In this document: positions 3,797 through 58,576 of the stretch, in pieces
How the letters are laid out: every line of letters starts with the position of its first letter
How positions within the stretch are numbered: position 1 is the first letter of the stretch
From: an uncultured bacterium
GTDB taxonomy: Bacteria; Patescibacteriota; Minisyncoccia; Phycocordibacterales; GWA1-40-21
DNA length: 64,000 nt
Assembly: GCA_963798465.1 (NCBI GenBank)
Contig: CAWCTC010000001.1
Location: 592,465 to 656,464 of the forward strand
Direction: 5' to 3'
Translations under genes and position numbers: made by a program
Notes under the pieces: model-generated
Told to the model about the DNA's origin: nothing
The model's input: only the letters and a program-made list of their open reading frames with translations
Database searches by the model: none

Positions 3797-5831
3797 TTAT
3801 TTTTTCTTTTCCACCCTCTCCTTCAAAACCTTAATCTCATCTCTCAATATCGCCGCGGTTTCAAAATCCAAAATCTTCACCGCTGCGTTCATTTGAATTT
3901 CTTTTTGTTTTATCAGCTTCATTGGGCTCTTTTTCATCATTTCCTCATCAATTCGAACAAGCTCTTTCACGGCTTTGTCATGATCGCTTCTCATATGGTC
4001 TGTGATATCGTGAATCTTTTTGATAATCGTTTTTGGAGTAATGCCGTGCTTTGTATTGTAAGCAATTTGTTTTTCTCTTCTTCTATTTGTCTCACCTATC
4101 GCTCGTTCCATTGAGCCGGTAATACTGTCAGCATAAAGCACCACGCGTCCGAGCAACATTTCTCGCCGCACGTCCGATGGTCTGAATAAGCGAAGTATCG
4201 CTGAACGCAAAAATCCTTCCTTGTCCGCATCAAGAATTCCGATAAATTCAACTTCCGGCAAATCCAAACCTTCTCGCAAAAGGTTTACTCCGACAAGACA
4301 ATCAAACTTCCCTTTTCTGAAAGTTCGTAAGAATATCTATTCTGTCTATTGTTTTTATTTCGCTGTGCAAATATTCTGCTTTCACACCTTTTTCTTTCAA
4401 ATATTCGCTCAAATCTTCCGCCATCTTTTTTGTGAGAGTTGTGGCAATGACTCTTCCGCCGTTTTTCACAACTTTTTCTGTTTCTTCTATAAAATCAAAA
4501 ACTTGAGATTTATTTTTTCCTTTTACTTCGGTAATCGGCTTTACTTCCACAATCGGATCAATCAAGACCAGTCGGACGGATAATTTGCTCCACAATTTTC
4601 TCTGAATTTTCTTTTTCATAATCTCCCGGCGTGGCTGTAGTATAAATAATTTGATTTACTCTTTCTTCAAATTCATCAAACTTCAAAGGTCTGTTGTCTT
4701 TTGCTGATGGAAGACGAAAACCATAGTCAATCAAAGTCTTTTTTCTTGAAGCATCGCCGGCATACATTCCTCTTATCTGAGAAATAGTGACGTGTGATTC
4801 ATCTATAATAGTCAGAAAGTCTGGAGTTCCATCTTCTTTCTTTGGAAAATATTCCAGAAAGTATCTGGTGCTTCGCCCGGTGCTTTGCCGGAAAAATGTC
4901 TTGAATAATTTTCAATTCCATTGCAATAGCCGACTTCTCTTATGAGCGACAAATCGTAAGTTGTTCTTCTTCGAAGTCTTTCTGCTTCAAGATTCTTTCC
5001 CAGCTTTTTTTAATTCTTCAAGTCTGTTCTTCAAGCTCAGCTTTTATACTTTTGAAAGCTCTTTCTTGCTGTTCTTTGTCTGTAATAAAATGTTTTGCAG
5101 GAAAAATAAAAGTTGATTGTATTTCATCTTCAACAAGTTTTCGAGAAACTGAATCAATTCTTGAAATTTTCTTTATTCTATCTTCAGCAAAATCTAAGCG
5201 AATCAAAATCTTTTCATTTACCGGCATGACTTCAATAGAATTTCCAATAGCACGAAAAGTTCCCGGCTTTATATCGGAATTTGTTCTTTCAAAATGAACA
5301 TTGATAAGTTTTTTTATAAGGTCTTGCCTCGTAGTTTTTTCTCCAACTTTCAATTTTAATATTTACTTTTTCATATTCTTCTGGTGAACCCAAACCGTAA
5401 ATACAAGAAACCGATGCGACAATAATCACATCTTTTCTCGTAAGAAGTGCTTGCGTGGAAGCATGGCGAAGTCTGTCTATCTCTTCATTTATCATCGCTT
5501 CCTTTTCAATATAAGTATCGGTGACGGCATATAAGCTTCCGGCTGATAGTAGTCGTAATAAGAAACAAAATAATGCACGGCATTGTCTGGGAAAAATTCT
5601 TTGTACTCTTGTGCGAGCTGAGCTGCGAGAGTTTTGTTGTGAGCGATGACAAGCGTCGGCTTTTGAATTTTTTCAATAACATTTGCAACCGTAAAAGTCT
5701 TTCCGGAGCCAGTAACGCCAAAAAGAGTCTGCTTTTTCAAGACCTTTTTCTAACCCCGCAACCAACTCTTTAATTGCATTCGGTTGATCCCCCGCTGGCT
5801 TATATTCTGCTTTGATTTTGAATTTTGACAT
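3797..5831 (-). pseudogene. uvrB: Excinuclease ABC subunit B, disrupted by about 10 frameshifts
   Basis: Pieces occur in shifting frames: [66 protein letters not shown], and the C-terminal UVR domain. At 4290-4300 an extra A in an A-run breaks QKGKFDCLVGVNLLREG. Confidence 0.85.
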
Positions 5832-52602: not shown

Positions 52603-53781
52603 TTAACTTAATACTTTTTGAGTTTCTACTGCAATCTGATTCATTTCATCCGTATTGATAACTTCTACTTTAACTTTGGAATCTTGCGTACTCAAATTAC
52701 AATCCACGCCATCGGTACAATCATTTATTTTCTGATCAATTAAAATCCCGAGAGATTCCAACCCGCTACAGATTCTTCTTCTCATCAAATATGATCTCTC
52801 ACCCACTGTTCCAGTAAATACGAGCATATCAAGACCGCCGAGAGCAACAAAACTCGCACCGATTTGTTTTTGTATTTTATAAACATAAGTATCGAGAGCC
52901 ATTTTTGCCGCAGCATTTTCATTTTCAACTTTCAAAAGATCCCTAATGTCATTACTAAGACCTCCGGAAAGTCCGAATAGTCCGCATTTTTTGTTGAAAT
53001 ATTGCGTAAGTTTCAATCCCTGCAATTTTAAAACTTCAGACAGATATACCACGGCACCGGCATCTATGTCTCCAACTCTGTTCGCCATTATCATTCCTTC
53101 AAGCGGAGTAAATCCCATGGATGTTTCTACACTTTTTCCATCTTTCACCGCCATGACGCTTACTCCTCCGCCGATATGGCAAACTATAAGTTTACTTGGA
53201 ATGTTTCCCTTCTTCTGCAATTTATTTACAATCGACTGAGCTGAAATCCCATGATAGCCGTATCTGTAAATATCATATTTTTCTGCATCCTTTGAATAGA
53301 TGCCATAATTCTTGGCCTTTTGAGGCATAGTGTGGTGGAATTCCGAATCGGATATGCCTACTATTTTCATATTGTTTCCAAAAAATAATTTCAATTTGAT
53401 TATCTCTTTAAAAATACCTTCAAGGTGAAGCGGGGCTTTTTTCATGGCTAATTTAAGATTGCGGATATACTCATCATCTATAATCCTATTTGTTTGAAAA
53501 TATATTCCAGGTGCGACAACTCTTATTCCGACTCCGGAAATATCATTCTTGTCGGAAATGATATTTTTTGCTTTAAATGTCTTAATCAGATAATCCAAAG
53601 AATTATTAAATTCTGATTCTAAAATTTTATTTTCTTCCGATTTATCGGAAATTCTTATCGTGGAAAGATAACCGCCGTCGCCGGTTTCAAAATGCACAAA
53701 AGCAGCTTCCTTTCCCTCATCGTATACAGCATACTTTTTTGAAGCGCTGCCGGTATTTACAATCAAATATTTTTCGCTCAT
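52603..53781 (-). CDS. ackA: Acetate kinase
   Basis: ILVVNTGSAS-type start (YLIVNTGSASKKY), GYHGIS, CHIGGGVS, and position downstream of xfp. Confidence 0.9.
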   Translation of the reverse strand: MSEKYLIVNTGSASKKYAVYDEGKEAAFVHFETGDGGYLSTIRISDKSEENKILESEFNNSLDYLIKTFKAKNIISDKNDISGVGIRVVAPGIYFQTNRIIDDEYIRNLKLAMKKAPLHLEGIFKEIIKLKLFFGNNMKIVGISDSEFHHTMPQKAKNYGIYSKDAEKYDIYRYGYHGISAQSIVNKLQKKGNIPSKLIVCHIGGGVSVMAVKDGKSVETSMGFTPLEGMIMANRVGDIDAGAVVYLSEVLKLQGLKLTQYFNKKCGLFGLSGGLSNDIRDLLKVENENAAAKMALDTYVYKIQKQIGASFVALGGLDMLVFTGTVGERSYLMRRRICSGLESLGILIDQKINDCTDGVDCNLSTQDSKVKVEVINTDEMNQIAVETQKVLS

Positions 53782-53790
53782 TTTTTTAAA

Positions 53791-56190
53791 TTATTTTTTA
53801 TAAGTCCATTTCCAATTTAATATTTCTTCTGGATCATCTCCAAAAGTCGTGATGTATGTTTTGTGGTCAGTGATTTTTTTCTGATATTTTTCTATAAGTT
53901 TTTTCGCTTTTTCCGATTCGATGATTCCATTTGCGGACAATTTTTCAACAGCTTCAATAAGTAAATTGTATCTATCCGTCTTGTTTCTTATGTGCAAATC
54001 GAGCGGAGTAGTCGTCGAACCGCTTTCTATATATCCGTGAACAGTGATTCTATGCAAAGCATTTTCATAATCAAAGAGCACTTGCTTCAAAGTTTCAGGA
54101 TATCCATGAAAGTTTAAAATTACCGGTTTATCTTTCGTAAAATATTTTTCAAATTCCGACTGGGTGATTTTCTTTGAATGGCCGACTGTGTCCGGAGAAA
54201 GTTCTATAATATTTACAAATCTTATTTTTACTTCCGGCGCTTCTTCTTTCAAAAGTTGTATCGATGCGAGCGCTTCCTTTGTGAGATATTGTCCGCAACC
54301 TCCAAAAATTACATCGGGATTTTCATCGCTTGCAAAATCCCAAATAGACAAGCCTTGTTCTATCTCTTTTTTCGCTTGTTCTTGCGTAAGCCAGACCGGC
54401 TCGACTGTTTTTTCAGAAACGATGACATTCATTTCATTTTTTGATTTCAAACATTTTTCGGCAATCATAACTGCCTCATTTTCATCAGCTGGAAAATAAA
54501 CATTTATAAAATCATGATGCAATTGCAAAACGTTATCTATAAATCCTGGATTCTGGTGCGAAAAACCGTTGTGCTCCTGCCTCCATCCGCTTGAACTTGT
54601 CATATAATTTAATGACGGGACATCTCCGCGCCACTCAGTCTTCCTGGCAATTTTCAAAAACTTGCTGTATTGGTCCGCCATGCTCGCGACAATCATTATA
54701 AAAGCCTCGTATGAAGGAAAAACTGCAAATCTTCCCGTCAAAGTGTATCCCTGCGCAAGACCGTGCAATGCATTTTCCGAAAGCATTTCTATCACTCTTC
54801 CGTCTCGTGCCAAATCAATATCCCATGGTTCTATTTTTCCAACAAAAGCTCTCGGTGTCTCAGCAAAAATATATTGTAATCTGTTTGAATAAGTTTCGTC
54901 AGGAGAAAACATCCTGAAATTTCTTTTATCTTTGTTTAATTTTACGACTTCGCCGAAGTATTGTCCGATTTTTGTCATCGCACCCATTGAAACATCGCCT
55001 GGTGCGCTAACTTTCGTCTCAAAATTTTTTATCGAGGGCAAAATTAAATCTTTTGACGTATCGCCTTTCCTGATTCCAAAAGTAACCGGATTATTTCCCA
55101 TTCTCAAACTTTCTGGGGGAAGAGCATTCTCGATTTCTTTTATAAAACCAGTTTTAGGATCGAAGAGTTCGTCAAACTTATATGATTTCATCCATTTTTC
55201 TAGATCATCAAGTTCAGTCTTATCGGTTTTCATTTCTCTTCCAACAACTTGATGAGACAAACAATTACCTTCGACTTTTCCATCGAACATTTTTCCTCTG
55301 CCTTCAATATCCCAACTGTATAAATGTTTTATTCCGGTCCAGCCTTTCGGAGTTTTCAAAATAATCATCGGAAATCTGTAATAATCTTTTATCGGCTTAT
55401 CAGAATTTGCCACAGCTTCCCTTTGAATCGATCTGATTGATGCATAAGCTTTATCCAAAGCTTTTACCATTTTGTCATAAACGGCATCCGTGTGTCCTTC
55501 AACAATAATCGGATCATAACCATAACCTCTAAATAAAGATATCAAATCTGAATTTTTCATTCTGCCAAAAATCGTCGGACCTGAAATTTTGTATCCGTTC
55601 AAATGAAGTATCGGCAAGACCGCGCCATTTTTTGCGGGATCAATAAATTTGCTCAAATGCCATGAAGTTGCAAGAGTTGCAGTTTCCGATTCGCCATCGC
55701 CGACAAGACATGCAGCGATAAGATTTGGATTGTCCAAGACAGCTCCATAAGATGTTGCGAGAGAATATCCAAGCTCTCCGCCTTCAAGAATAACTCCGGG
55801 AGTCATCGGACTTGAATGGCTTGGAAACTGATATGGCCAGCTGAAATTTTTCATTATATATCCGATTCCTTCTTCATTTTTCTGCGCTTCTTTATAATAT
55901 TTTCCTAAAGTTCCTTCAAGAAAAACATTAGACTGGAGAGCGGGAAAACCGTGTCCGGGACCAAGGACGAACATCATATTTGCATTCGTCTTTTTTATCA
56001 AATTATTCAAACATGCGTATGTAAAATTTATTCCAGGAGTAGTTCCCCAATGTCCGAGAAGCCTGTTTTTTATATTGTCAAAAGTCAGTTTGTCTTTCAA
56101 TAAAAAATTACTTTGCAAGTATATCTGACCGACTGAAAGATAATCCGCCGCGCGGACAAACTTTTTTATATTTTCTATTTCTTGCGACAT
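53791..56190 (-). CDS. xfp: Xylulose-5-phosphate/fructose-6-phosphate phosphoketolase
   Basis: GHWGTTPG, EGGELGY, GDGESETG-like GDGESET, HQNPGF-type SHQNPGF. 799 aa. Confidence 0.95.
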   Translation of the reverse strand: MSQEIENIKKFVRAADYLSVGQIYLQSNFLLKDKLTFDNIKNRLLGHWGTTPGINFTYACLNNLIKKTNANMMFVLGPGHGFPALQSNVFLEGTLGKYYKEAQKNEEGIGYIMKNFSWPYQFPSHSSPMTPGVILEGGELGYSLATSYGAVLDNPNLIAACLVGDGESETATLATSWHLSKFIDPAKNGAVLPILHLNGYKISGPTIFGRMKNSDLISLFRGYGYDPIIVEGHTDAVYDKMVKALDKAYASIRSIQREAVANSDKPIKDYYRFPMIILKTPKGWTGIKHLYSWDIEGRGKMFDGKVEGNCLSHQVVGREMKTDKTELDDLEKWMKSYKFDELFDPKTGFIKEIENALPPESLRMGNNPVTFGIRKGDTSKDLILPSIKNFETKVSAPGDVSMGAMTKIGQYFGEVVKLNKDKRNFRMFSPDETYSNRLQYIFAETPRAFVGKIEPWDIDLARDGRVIEMLSENALHGLAQGYTLTGRFAVFPSYEAFIMIVASMADQYSKFLKIARKTEWRGDVPSLNYMTSSSGWRQEHNGFSHQNPGFIDNVLQLHHDFINVYFPADENEAVMIAEKCLKSKNEMNVIVSEKTVEPVWLTQEQAKKEIEQGLSIWDFASDENPDVIFGGCGQYLTKEALASIQLLKEEAPEVKIRFVNIIELSPDTVGHSKKITQSEFEKYFTKDKPVILNFHGYPETLKQVLFDYENALHRITVHGYIESGSTTTPLDLHIRNKTDRYNLLIEAVEKLSANGIIESEKAKKLIEKYQKKITDHKTYITTFGDDPEEILNWKWTYKK

Positions 56191-56268
56191 ATGATTTTAT
56201 TTATTAAAAAATGCTGATAAATTGGCCGAACATGTCCTAGTATAGCAACTATCGGCGAAGTAATGAAA

Positions 56269-56841
56269 TTATTTTATCAACTCCTCGACATTTCCCGAAA
56301 GGTCTGTGGTGTCTCCCTCGACCTTCGAAACATCTCCGTAAATATTGGTAACATCGCCTTTTATATTTGTCACATGGCCTTTTATATTGCTGACGTAACC
56401 TTTAATGTTTGTGACATTGCCGGTTATATTTGTCACATCTCCTTGCAGATCGGAAACATCGCCAATTATTTTCGTCGTATCGCCTTCAATATGGCTTACA
56501 TCGCCGTGAATATTTGTAACATCACCGCTGATATTGGAAACATCGCCGACAATTCCGCTCAAGTCTCCGCGGATTTTTGAAACATTTCCGCGAATTTTTG
56601 ACACATCGCTTTTGATATTAGTCACATCGCCTTTTATGTTCGAAACATCGCCATGCAAGCCGGAAATATCTCCGCTGATGTTTGAAACGTCGCCGGAAAT
56701 TTTATGTATGCTCAAATCGCCGGATATTTTTGAAACATCGCCTTTTATGGATTTAAAATCGCCCATTATATTGTCATGCAAGCCTGTGACATTTTCCGTA
56801 TTCAGCTGTTTGAAAGCTATATTTATTTTTTTGAGTGTCAT
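56269..56841 (-). CDS. Heptad-repeat protein: about 22 tandem GDV(S/T)NIx units, no signal peptide
   Basis: GDVSNIS GDISGLH GDVSNIK GDVTNIK SDVSKIR GNVSKIR ... GDVTNIY GDVSKVE GDTTDLS. TGATATCAT lies 6 nt upstream of the ATG. The plus-strand ORFs 56263..56580 and 56534..56851 are shadows of the repeat. Confidence 0.7.
   Translation of the reverse strand: MTLKKINIAFKQLNTENVTGLHDNIMGDFKSIKGDVSKISGDLSIHKISGDVSNISGDISGLHGDVSNIKGDVTNIKSDVSKIRGNVSKIRGDLSGIVGDVSNISGDVTNIHGDVSHIEGDTTKIIGDVSDLQGDVTNITGNVTNIKGYVSNIKGHVTNIKGDVTNIYGDVSKVEGDTTDLSGNVEELIK
56290..56760 (-). repeat. 21-bp tandem coding repeat underlying the heptad protein
   Basis: Periodicity of GGNGAYGTNWCNAAYATHNNN read over about 470 bp. 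Confidence 0.75.
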
Positions 56842-56957
56842 GACAATATGATATCACAAAATTTTACAGATTTCTTTTTACAAAAAGCCTCACGATTCTC
56901 AATTCTTCATAAGAATAAGCGTTACCGAGCTTATTTTTAATTGGATTTAATAGAAAA

Positions 56958-58538
56958 TCACGATTTCGTGCCATAAAGTTCACGAAACGTCATCCAAATT
57001 TTCTTGTACTTACCTGTCGGAACTTCTTCTTTCAAATGATTGATATCAAAACTCGAATCTTCTTCAACAATTTTTTCAATATGATCGAGAAGCGTGCCGA
57101 TTTTAATTCCTTTTATTTCCAAAATTTCTTTCAAACCCATTCCTTGTGAAAGCATATTTTTGGTTTCTTCTATCGGCGAGATTCTTCTTTTTTTCTTTTT
57201 GTCTATTTTCGTTCCTTCCGGCGGAGCAACTTTTTTCAAAAATTCTTCCTGCTTATTTTTTATTTCTTTGTCGGAAAGAGTATAAAGCCATTGTTTATCG
57301 CCATCTGACATTTCTTTCAAATCTTCATCAAAAATAGAAACATCCTCACGAACTTCAAGCGCATTTTTATTCATTCCAAGCAAACGCAGACCCTCAAGAG
57401 TTCGCACACGAGAAAGCGCAACATAGCCCATTCCTTTTTCAAAAGATTTTGAAAGATCGACTTCAACTGCATCCAAACTCATACCTTGGCTTTTGTGCAC
57501 AGTTATAGCCCAAGCCAAGCGAAGCGGATATTGTGTGATTGTCGCTTTCACTTTTCCTTCATCTTCAATCACCCAATTTACTTTTTCCGGAATAATTATT
57601 TTTCCTGAAGTAAGCATGACTTTCGGTCCATAGTTTGAACACTCAATAACTTTTCCCAAAGTTCCATTTGCATATCCTTCTTCAAAATTATTTTTTACAA
57701 ACATCACTCTCGCTCCTTTTTTCAAACGCAAAACTTCTGGCGCAAGACAGCTTTTTTTCAATGCTTCGACAAGCGGTTTTCTTCCTTTGTCTTCCATTTG
57801 ATATGTAAAAATTTGCCCTGGAAGTTTGTTGAGCTCGGCATCATTAATAGTATCTACATTTATATTGTGAGTGTGAAGTTTTGTCGGCTCAATTCCCTCT
57901 TTCAAACAAGCATTATTTCTTGAATTCAAACAAAGTAAAGATTCTTCGCTCAAATTTCCTCCGCGAATTCCATTTAAAATTTTTATAAACTTGTCATCTT
58001 TATGTCTGAATTGTTCTTCAAGATAGCAAATTTTCAAATTAAGTTTTTTCCAAGCTTCAGACTTATATGCAAATTGAGATTCTTTTTCGCCCACTCTTGA
58101 AACCGGAGGAAGCTGGAAAAAATCTCCGCAAAGTATCACTTGCATTCCACCAAATGGAAGCTGATTTCTTTTCAAATGTCTTGCGATTCTTTCTATCAAA
58201 TCCAAGCGAAAATCGATGAATCATTGAAACCTCATCAATTATCAAAACTTCTGTTTCTCTAAATCTATCATGCAAATATTTCTTACTTTCCAAATCTTCC
58301 AAGATCATATTCTGTAAGTTCATCACGAATACCAAGTCCGCTCCAAGAATGAATCGTCGTTCCACCCATATGAGTCGCCGCAATTCCAGTCGAAGCGGTC
58401 ACGCCAACTTCAACTCCTTTATTTTTAAGGAATTTTATATATTCATTTAAAAGATGCGTTTTACCAGCTACCCGCCGCTCCTGTGATATAGCAGTTGTAT
58501 CCCATCTTCAATATTTCTAGTGCATCCTTTTGGGTCAT
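56958..58538 (-). pseudogene. Pif1/RecD-like superfamily-1 helicase, at least 3 frameshifts (one inside Walker A)
   Basis: [24 protein letters not shown] then GGTAGCTGGTAAAACG, where GSGKT is expected. IIDEVSMI, GGMQVILCGDFFQLPPV, ITVHKSQGMSLD, ALSRVR. Confidence 0.8.
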
Positions 58539-58576
58539 AGAAAACTATTTTATCATAGAAAAGAAAAAGATAACGA

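Follow-up and report, generated by a model that had tools for sequence, protein, structure and literature searches.

A conserved heptad-array protein of a Patescibacteria bacterium, probably a stand-alone coiled-coil rod

We wondered what a protein built almost entirely from a single seven-residue motif might look like, and what it might do for the Patescibacteria (CPR) bacterium that encodes it. The gene lies on the minus strand of a 64,000-nucleotide stretch of DNA, referred to here as the window. A preliminary description had depicted the product as a near-pure array of G-D-V-(S/T)-N-I-x units behind a 26-residue head, and translation together with unit counts upheld this account. The features of the locus are as follows.

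56269..56841, minus strand: complete CDS of the heptad-repeat protein, stop codon included (open reading frame list and translation)
56764..56841, minus strand: head, aa 1-26 (MTLKKINIAFKQLNTENVTGLHDNIM), with the N-cap motif N14-T-E-N-V-T-G-L-H22 (ortholog conservation)
56722..56763, minus strand: heptads 1-2, GDFKSIK GDVSKIS, aa 27-40 (repeat layout)
56695..56721, minus strand: nonad (7+2) GDLSIHKIS, aa 41-49, which breaks the heptad register (ortholog conservation)
56275..56694, minus strand: 20 uninterrupted heptads, aa 50-189, with V at a, I at d, G at f and D/N at g (gap-free ortholog alignment)
56272..56295, minus strand: C-terminal cap GNVEELIK, aa 183-190, i.e. the last heptad plus K190 (ortholog conservation)
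56848..56856, minus strand: extended -10-like box TGATATCAT, 6 nt upstream of the ATG (sequence only)
56263..56580 and 56534..56851 (span 56263..56851), plus strand: two antisense open reading frames of 105 aa each, repeat by-products interrupted by stops

The CDS starts with ATG and encodes 190 aa. Its sense frame is the sole frame open in all orthologs (8/8), and the antisense frames carry 2-25 stops and are broken in the window as well as in every ortholog. We therefore rejected the two antisense frames as genes, and with them the possibility raised earlier that the opposite strand is the expressed one. Substitutions among orthologs concentrate at codon position 3, and the entropy among repeat units amounts to 1.10, 0.55 and 1.54 at codon positions 1, 2 and 3, respectively. 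A copy that is 99% identical (L005) differs from the window by 20 nt, resulting in 2 amino acid changes and no indels, a pattern that points to strong purifying selection on the protein. Judged by its reading frame, comparison with the orthologs shows 56269..56841 (minus strand) to be a genuine conserved gene of a Patescibacteria bacterium. In the window, as well as in L005, L006, L007, L008, L009, L010 and L014, a TGnTAnAAT-type box precedes the ATG by 6-7 nt, and the gene has no Shine-Dalgarno sequence. The box may be the gene's own promoter, which would give rise to a putative leaderless mRNA.

The protein consists of the 26-aa head, 22 heptads of the form G-D-V-S/T-N-I-x and one 9-residue unit. 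Across the 22 heptads, the consensus residues are G (21/22), D (17), V (17), S or T (12 and 8), N (10) and I (17), and position 7 is variable. The array had been called near-perfect, which holds for its register but not for its sequence, since the units share ~50% identity at the protein level and ~57% on average at the DNA level. Several positions never vary in the ortholog alignment (A1): N14, H22 and I25 of the head and G27-D28-F29 at the start of the array. The nonad contributes a second invariant His, H46, and single heptads are conserved between orthologs, e.g. the invariant G141-N142-V143-T144. The nonad follows the pattern G[DN]xx[IL]H[KR]Ix in the 8 orthologs that have kept the segment and is also present in P0171; L014 has lost it in an in-register deletion. 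Both ends of the array have counterparts elsewhere. A start motif 'LNxENLTG' also opens the arrays of P0001, P0006, P0022, P0036 and P0112, and the C-terminal cap, which reads G[DN][VI]xE[LI][LI]K in the orthologs, resembles the ends of other arrays (GDVEELIR in P0001, GNVRELVK in P0006).

Which fold might such an array adopt? Throughout the array, V and I are spaced 3 and 4 residues apart, which is the a/d pattern of coiled coils, and V at a combined with I/L at d was found in 22/23 units. The register profile of the orthologs reads V64/I12 at a, I60/L29 at d and D67/N19 at g (values in %), with K/R at 30% versus E at 8% in position e. Pfam families scoring above their gathering cutoffs were Baculo_PEP_C (PF04513; 45.3 bits, cutoff 38), LPP (PF04728; 42.4, cutoff 29.1; residues 52-83 only) and DUF1664 (PF07889; 41.4, cutoff 34.6). 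The Baculo_PEP_C and DUF1664 matches do not extend beyond the heptad segments and turn up in every heptad-array protein irrespective of architecture, and we read these scores as coiled-coil cross-matches. A match to KOW2_Spt5 (36.5 versus 28.9, several stretches of ~22 residues) was set aside as low-complexity similarity to G-D-x-V-x-V-like strings. Matches in PHROG were virion fibre- or needle-type proteins, including 'tail needle' and 'minor head protein' families.

Searches of the PDB, using either the single sequence or the ortholog profile, returned alpha-helical coiled coils only, mostly homotrimers. All matches at E <= 1 (40/40) are helical coiled coils, among them P22 gp26 (3.8e-8), the SlaB-like 8qox (7.6e-7), cavin-1 HR1, reovirus sigma-1, SadA fragments, fibritin and Lpp. 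Repeating the search with a hand-edited, partly idealised repeat region gave the same outcome as the native sequence. In the gp26 alignment, V, I and G of the heptad fall on positions a, d and f ('EGEIASLQ', 'DGRVTTAE'), a register that also fits 8qox. The structure prediction proposed earlier as a check gave a mixed answer. From the single sequence, AlphaFold2 predicted a continuous helix at residues 3-42 and 45-188 with a mean pLDDT of 92.6, confident in only 2/5 models; the break at aa 43-44 coincides with the nonad. With alignment A2 (31 heterogeneous family members, 594 columns) the model was mostly irregular, with a pLDDT of 61 and a helix only at 143-174, and Foldseek found no match for it in the PDB. 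We treated the A2-based model as uninformative and not as support for a beta fold.

Taken together, we consider it probable that the 22 heptads and the nonad form a long alpha-helix that joins like chains in a stiff coiled-coil rod, parallel and most likely three-stranded, and that the protein is a stand-alone fibrous one. As a matter of sequence comparison, the matches show kinship with trimeric coiled coils; helicity, the trimeric state and the beta-layer are properties that we infer. The trimer is suggested because residues a and d are beta-branched and because the matches are themselves trimeric. Harbury and colleagues (1993) reportedly found that trimers are favoured when a and d are both beta-branched.

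The same heptad is found in bona fide trimeric proteins. In their stalks, trimeric autotransporter adhesins (YadA/SadA/UspA1) use units of the form G-[DN]-V-[ST]-x-[LI]-x. In P0040, which has 10 YadA_stalk matches and a YadA_anchor, and in the similar P0136, runs reach at most 9 units; these two proteins match YadA_stalk at E = 1e-76 and 2e-63 and contain 31 and 18 such heptads, respectively. A stalk segment carrying the heptad itself matches gp26, UspA1 and Hia in the PDB, and our PDB searches also brought up fragments of SadA and UspA1. The trimeric autotransporter architecture is an obligate parallel trimer. In contrast to the adhesins, the window protein is a stand-alone protein of 190 aa with no visible signal peptide and without head, neck or anchor, and its array comprises 22 heptads; Pfam detected no YadA_anchor, YadA_stalk or YadA_head in it. 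An outer membrane is not expected in Patescibacteria. Phage P22 gp26, T4 fibritin and reovirus sigma-1, the best matches among solved structures, are trimeric parallel rods whose heptads likewise place Gly at f and fill a and d with beta-branched residues. Unlike the window protein, in which every heptad contains Gly, the phage fibres have it only occasionally, and the window protein lacks their tip, knob and foldon domains. Lpp and the stalk of SlaB (NCBIfam E = 1.6e-7) form trimeric coils from heptads that are rich in Ser, Asn and Asp and follow an 'sDVxxL' pattern. The likeness to them is one of heptad pattern only: the window protein has no membrane anchor, its array is 3 times the length of Lpp, it contains no Cys that could serve in a lipobox, and its N-terminus is not signal-like.

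A further parallel concerns the nonad. Where two residues are inserted into a parallel coiled-coil trimer, a beta-layer forms (Hartmann et al., 2016; PMC4786415), and the alpha/beta coiled coils described there have 9-residue (7+2) units within heptads, of which the window protein has only one. Residues 41-49 carry such a +2 insertion (a-b-c-b1-b2-b3-e-f-g). The agreement with published preferences is imperfect, however: positions b1-b3 are H-K-I as compared to K-A-D or K-D-D, and the unit L-S-I-H-K-I-S-G-D is unlike the published motifs IENKADKAD and MATKDDIAN. We regard the nonad as a candidate beta-layer or hinge.

Some observations run counter to a helix. Just over half of the protein (51%) consists of G, D, S, N and T, and helix formers are few. 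Neither the mean Chou-Fasman values (alpha 0.92, beta 1.02, turn 1.08) nor the hydrophobic moment, which has the same strength at 102.9 as at 154.3 degrees, distinguishes alpha from beta. Among orthologs, conservation is tightest for Gly at f (98%), Ser/Thr at b (87%) and Asp/Asn at g (86%); it exceeds what a plain coiled coil needs and is atypical, more like the turns and ladders of solenoids. The distant ortholog P0163 contains irregular proline-bearing units within its array. A monomeric beta-solenoid had been suggested at the outset, and these properties are what it would draw upon: two or three heptads would form a turn, with Gly and Asp/Asn at the bends, an Asn ladder and a Val/Ile core, and the mostly non-helical, low-confidence A2-based model could be counted in its favour. 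Known beta-solenoid families (pentapeptide, LbH, RTX nonapeptide and the xxNxVxG heptad of Lolium IBP) are likewise short Gly/Asp/Asn tandem repeats with one or two aliphatics and conserved turn-like positions. Yet the heptad protein differs from them in its period, 7 as compared to 5, 6 or 9 in pentapeptide, hexapeptide and RTX solenoids, and its 3/4 hydrophobic spacing is at odds with alternating in/out strands. A super-period of two or three heptads was looked for and none was found. Pentapeptide, hexapeptide LbH and RTX families were absent from the 25 top-ranking Pfam matches (of 36 at E <= 10) and from the NCBIfam and PDB matches, and no beta-solenoid family or structure of any other kind was among these matches; the sequence-to-structure matches were all alpha-helical. 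Considering also the confident helix of the single-sequence model and the occurrence of an identical heptad within the coiled-coil stalks of trimeric autotransporters, we judge the solenoid, which has gained no positive support, to be unlikely.

Less likely still is a trimeric beta fibre, either a triple-stranded beta-helix of the gp5C/VgrG kind or an extended alpha/beta coiled coil in which beta-layers are numerous. The family's kinship with fibre proteins of phages, the conserved nonad and the fact that monomer prediction would not see such a fold speak for it, as does the sequence I-x-G-(D/N)-V-(S/T)-N, which may resemble the octad V-x-G-(N/D)-x-(T/S) that spikes of the gp5C type carry. But the period is 7 and not the 8 of VxGxxxxx, the segments of gp26, sigma-1 and fibritin matched in the PDB are alpha-helical, and only one of 23 units is a nonad. 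A tblastn search of 50,697 phage records revealed no T4-like spike; its matches were coiled-coil proteins of Bacillus, Aeromonas and Lactobacillus phages and one uncultured phage only. Because the strictest positions, f, b and g, are normally free in coiled coils, and because of the prolines in P0163, we also considered a broader reading, which we hold to be doubtful, if a little less so than the solenoid: the array might represent an undescribed fold (heptapeptide beta-helix, trimeric beta fibre or alpha/beta chameleon), or a coiled coil whose Gly/Ser/Asn surface functions in lateral packing into a lattice or filament.

Two further explanations concern the DNA and the neighbourhood of the gene. 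That a 21-bp tandem repeat encodes the array was borne out, the periodicity of the coding DNA being real, and such a repeat could act as a contingency locus, in which repeat numbers change fast to cause phase or length variation. L014, which lacks exactly 51 residues in register, and a tandem multigene family on another contig would fit this idea. However, the DNA copies are only 60-78% identical to the reference copy and the longest exact repeat inside the array is 15 nt; slippage is unlikely because the units are too diverged. Seven orthologs (53-99% identity) measure 190, 192, 190, 186, 190, 193 and 194 aa, and those with 53-67% identity align without gaps, heptad by heptad. Repeat-number polymorphism had been put forward as something to look for in related genomes, and the expected length variation did not materialise; together with the absence of indels relative to L005, this makes a contingency locus highly improbable. 

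The remaining proposal was that the protein acts as a nucleic-acid mimic or as a partner of the adjacent Pif1/RecD-like helicase. The neighbouring Pif1-like gene is indeed disrupted as described, a pseudogene with at least 3 frameshifts, and no helicase adjoins the heptad gene at 8 other ortholog loci (among L006-L014). Judged by synteny, the adjacency is fortuitous. One Asp per heptad, and small homologs situated among the early/replication genes of a phage beside an SSB gene, could be cited for mimicry. Against it, the acidity of the protein is only mild (pI 5.25, 26 acidic versus 19 basic residues, net charge ~-7), far from known DNA mimics of the Ocr/ArdA type, the protein has no conserved linkage to DNA enzymes, its Asp at g probably forms pairs with K/R at e, and the defence-system models of PADLOC gave no match. 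We give mimicry, too, hardly any credence. Of the earlier suggestions on function, a fibre-forming role is still conceivable, whereas the DNA-mimic part is not borne out. No conserved operon partner was found among the ortholog loci. Genes for phosphoketolase and acetate kinase are adjacent in 6-7 related genomes; the orientation is opposite in the window lineage and the adjacency is gone in the two most distant orthologs, and we read it as inherited synteny and not as a functional operon. The gene context is cellular, syntenic and chromosomal, not that of a prophage.

The N-terminus, MTLKKINIAFKQLNTEN, contains no hydrophobic core or export signal visible by inspection, in line with the previously noted lack of a signal peptide or transmembrane segment, and the protein is presumably cytoplasmic. 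There is no curated family for the heptad repeat in Pfam or NCBIfam, which give generic coiled-coil matches only, and the homologs have neither a Pfam domain nor a name; the earlier impression that this is no recognised repeat thus holds. The motif appeared in no paper found by our literature search, in which the sole match combining Patescibacteria and heptads concerned chemoreceptors. The orthologs with 53-67% identity came from a genome scan and had been missed by the database word search. A second, profile-based database search added only fragments (P0171) and the distant ortholog P0163.

How might the coiled-coil rod be built? The core would be formed by the beta-branched V at a and I at d, flanked by ion pairs between D at g and K/R/H at e, while G at f, S/T at b and N at c would line the outer face. 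With ~0.148 nm per residue, helix residues 3-188 would span a rod of ~27 nm, of which ~21 nm would be unbroken. The array would be capped by NTENVTGLH at its N-terminal and by GNVEELIK at its C-terminal end, and the single conserved nonad (..IHKI..) would probably introduce a local non-helical beta-layer or hinge. Because ortholog length is constant, we infer a structural rod of fixed length. The protein would act as a spacer, scaffold or fibre and be neither an enzyme nor a DNA mimic.

The genomes of Patescibacteria are tiny, and only a few of their proteins are recognised as structural. This conserved, unannotated protein, which has a fixed length and apparently a promoter of its own, is a candidate part of their poorly understood cell architecture or host-contact apparatus. 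The near-idealised array, with its 22 heptads, Gly at f, beta-branched a and d positions, caps and one nonad, represents a natural test case for coiled coils, which could show how far helix bundles tolerate Gly and where beta-layers occur. If the protein is simply a trimeric coiled coil, the result would be useful and unsurprising. Adhesin stalks, phage fibres and many metagenomic proteins that lack annotation have the heptad in common, and defining the family would improve their annotation. Should the array instead prove to have a new fold or a functional surface, either way a widespread, unannotated repeat class would be defined, one that ranges across CPR bacteria, DPANN archaea and their phages and includes a conserved 'ruler' protein of fixed length in Paceibacteria-type genomes as well as tandem multigene arrays.

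The heptad ORF (56269..56841, minus strand) starts with ATG and encodes 190 residues. Its parts and nearby features are:

Residues 1-26, minus strand: head, MTLKKINIAFKQLNTENVTGLHDNIM
Between the 26-aa head and the nine-residue unit, minus strand: the first two heptads
Residues 41-49, minus strand: nine-residue unit (nonad) GDLSIHKIS
Residues 50-189, minus strand: main array, 20 heptads without interruption
Last heptad and K190, minus strand: tail GNVEELIK
56848-56856, minus strand: extended -10-like box seen in the sequence, TGATATCAT
53791-56190 and 52603-53781, minus strand: phosphoketolase and acetate kinase pair, neighbours of the heptad gene

Over 22 heptad units we counted G 21 times, D 17, V 17, S 12 plus T 8, N 10 and I 17, followed by a variable seventh residue. 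The 21-bp period is clear in the DNA and the copies have diverged: they share 60-78% identity with a reference copy, TRF returned fragmentary arrays only (the longest with 62% matches), and no exact repeat within the array exceeds 15 nt. The array, initially described as near-perfect and encoded by a 21-bp repeat, thus holds a near-perfect register while its sequence is imperfect. With a pI of 5.25 and a net charge of about -7 the protein is mildly acidic, and it has no visible export signal, as first reported. Its homologs carry no Pfam domain and are named 'hypothetical' or spuriously YjbJ. The description as an unannotated heptad-repeat protein is borne out. The heptad motif was found in no paper of the literature library searched.

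Ten related loci, nearly all from Patescibacteria MAGs, came up when one genome per species was scanned. The orthologs compared were L005 (isolate bog_1341, 99% identity), L006-L009 (Minisyncoccia / Paceibacterota, 65-67%), L010 and L011 (bins labelled Saccharibacteria, 53-56%) and L014, a shorter copy at 4912-5334. The sense frame is the sole open frame in 8/8 full-length orthologs, and the antisense frames behind the window's two 105-aa ORFs contain stops in every ortholog. Differences between the window and L006 number 43/23/86 nucleotides at codon positions 1/2/3, with similar patterns in the other orthologs; codon-position entropy among the heptad units is 1.10/0.55/1.54. The antisense stops and the third-position bias argue against expression of the opposite-strand ORFs, a concern raised in the preliminary description. 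The heptad ORF is a real minus-strand gene.

The suggestion that the repeat makes the gene prone to length variation did not hold, and the idea of a contingency locus is refuted. Ortholog lengths are 190, 192, 190, 186, 190, 193 and 194 aa, and eight of nine aligned sequences have no gap anywhere in the 23 units. Features peculiar to single heptads persist across orthologs (GNVT at 141-144 is invariant, and 148-152 reads G[YF]VSN), and the window and L005 differ by 20 nucleotides and two residues with no indel. The sole length variant seen was L014, where exactly 51 residues (six heptads and the nonad) are missing in register. Given these constant lengths and the heptad-by-heptad alignment, the array is old and stable, being neither homogenised nor resized, and the constancy suggests selection on the length of a putative rod.

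What might such an array fold into? Each heptad holds two hydrophobic residues spaced 3 and 4 apart, and the sole fitting coiled-coil register places V at a, I at d, x at e, G at f, D at g, S/T at b and N at c. Harbury and colleagues are reported to have found in 1993 that trimers are preferred to dimers when both a and d hold beta-branched residues. Searches of Pfam, NCBIfam, PHROGs and PDB sequences each returned alpha-helical coiled coils: Baculo_PEP_C, LPP and DUF1664 above the Pfam cutoffs, the SlaB stalk in NCBIfam, and 'minor head protein' and 'tail needle protein' in PHROGs. With the ortholog profile at E <= 1, all 40 of 40 PDB matches were helical coiled coils, mostly homotrimers; among them are P22 gp26 (3.8e-8), 8qox (7.6e-7), cavin-1 HR1, reovirus sigma-1, SadA fragments, fibritin, Lpp, coronavirus HR1 and HA2. 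In the gp26 and 8qox alignments, whose heptads include EGEIASLQ, DGRVTTAE and LQGKISSL, the V, I and G of our heptad line up with their a, d and f positions. In YadA-type autotransporters the stalk is an obligately trimeric coiled coil. Five or more strict G[DN]h[ST]xhxG heptads occur in 59 of the 146 top representatives with available sequence in a full HMMER scan, among them the trimeric autotransporter adhesins P0040 (YadA_stalk x10 plus YadA_anchor) and P0136 (YadA_stalk x7). Their stalks carry runs of up to nine GNVTTLQ/GDVTTLQ units, and a stalk segment with such runs matches gp26, UspA1 and Hia. The presence of these heptads within bona fide adhesin stalks is the strongest comparative point for a coiled coil.

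Several observations speak against a plain coiled coil. Helix-forming residues are scarce in the composition, and simple propensity scales do not separate alpha from beta here. Conservation peaks at f (G, 98%), b (S/T, 87%) and g (D/N, 86%). The distant ortholog P0163 (194 aa, same head, LNTEKVEGLHPEVWGDF) contains the irregular units GPIPPGFTG, GRPEGLIG, GFLPQDLVG and GYPGRLYG, which include prolines and are incompatible with an uninterrupted helix. Composition and conserved G/S/T/D/N positions are also what favours the beta-solenoid proposed initially; yet no 2- or 3-heptad super-period, as a solenoid might leave, was found in the array, and every library search returned alpha-helical coiled coils. 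We therefore regard a solenoid as unlikely and a beta-fibre as more improbable still. AlphaFold2, proposed earlier as a check, gave a divided answer: from the single sequence it predicted one long helix (3-42, 45-188; pLDDT 92.6), confident in only two of five models, whereas an alignment of 31 heterogeneous family members gave a low-confidence, mostly irregular model (pLDDT 61) for which structure search found no match. Taking the search matches, adhesin stalks, mixed predictions and counter-points together, we favour, with reservations, a parallel, probably trimeric, alpha-helical rod. Its predicted length would be ~27 nm (186 helical residues at ~0.148 nm each).

The single-sequence helix breaks at the nonad. 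All eight orthologs retaining the segment, and the fragment P0171, match G[DN]xx[IL]H[KR]Ix there. In parallel trimeric coiled coils, 2-residue insertions (nonads) are accommodated as beta-layers with the register a-b-c-b1-b2-b3-e-f-g (Hartmann et al., PMC4786415). Read in this register our nonad is L-S-I-H-K-I-S-G-D; since these residues are unlike the motifs tested by those authors, a beta-layer is offered purely as a hypothesis. H22 (56776-56778), in the head at a predicted core a position, is invariant in 9/9 aligned sequences, and H46 (56704-56706), within the nonad, is kept by the eight sequences retaining it and absent from L014. Speculatively, both could provide axial ligand layers that bind a metal or an anion in a trimer.

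The window (GC 35%) is of cellular origin and encodes phosphoketolase, acetate kinase, TrmD, RNase R and GH130 enzymes. The upstream Pif1-like helicase (56958-58560, minus strand) is disrupted, as first noted: its Walker A reads ITGAAGSW*, the frame then shifts 3 -> 1 -> 2 -> 3, and only a C-terminal 415-aa ORF with PIF1, Pif1_2B and HTH_40 matches is intact. It is a pseudogene, with sequencing or assembly errors possible. Co-occurrence with helicases, proposed as a check, was not seen: no helicase match adjoins the heptad gene in L006-L014; this, the decayed helicase and the pI of the protein leave the idea of a DNA mimic or helicase partner without support. No defence-system match was found for the heptad protein. 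Phosphoketolase is the recurrent neighbour, and its pair with acetate kinase adjoins the heptad gene in 6-7 related genomes. The heptad gene is followed by phosphoketolase and then acetate kinase, all co-directional, in the window and L005. In L006, L007, L009 and L014 phosphoketolase is divergent and a TypA/BipA-like GTPase, missing from the window, follows the heptad gene; in L008 phosphoketolase lies ~3 kb away, and L010 and L011 have unrelated neighbours. We take the adjacency for synteny inherited by related genomes rather than for a functional operon. The ATG follows 6-7 nt after a TGnTAnAAT-type extended -10-like box in eight of nine copies (window, L005-L010, L014; no clear box in L011), and no Shine-Dalgarno sequence precedes the ATG in the window (56842-56858) or in orthologs with the box, which suggests that the gene has its own promoter and a leaderless mRNA.

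In the wider family the array is capped by L-N-x-E-N-[LVI]-T-G at the N-terminus and by G-[DN]-V-E-E-L-[IV]-K or GNLDxCGLTxEDRxxGxDIxDL at the C-terminus. It occurs in small proteins of CPR bacteria, a Micrarchaeaceae archaeon and uncultured phages, within 1,000-1,500-aa proteins and in fusions with subtilase or DUF7296; some heptads are Cys variants (GDCSxLxG). Contig DYJL01000023.1 (L012 1-7063, L013 4169-12748) holds at least 14 tandem paralogs, each starting M.KERKLIN.ENLTGDT.RIWGDAKGIRGNASNI and continuing as GDVSNIx heptads, which makes them a multigene family; the binning of this 48.7-kb contig (~28% GC) as Nitrospira japonica is probably wrong. Phage MW202691.1 (L004 5989-6390) encodes a 133-aa protein of ~14 GDCSSLxG heptads ending GNLNDCDIAGPCDIEALVEG. 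Its gene has early/replication genes around it and an SSB gene nearby; the predicted core a position of each heptad would be a Cys. The archaeal P0003 gene (L003 1-4249, Micrarchaeaceae contig JAVZQE010000017.1) lies within ~12 small co-directional genes with no Pfam matches, a run resembling a block of viral or mobile-element genes.

The heptad protein has its closest known counterparts in the coiled coils of trimeric autotransporter stalks and phage fibres, and by analogy it would work like them, provided that the rod fold, which we consider somewhat the better bet, is correct. It belongs to neither group because it lacks anchor, signal and tip domains. It is a stand-alone, capped, fixed-length heptad array with Gly at f, probably a rod, that is conserved in Patescibacteria. 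The unusual conservation of its outward-facing Gly/Ser/Asn would be of greater interest if it were a true sign of a new fold or a lattice-forming surface.
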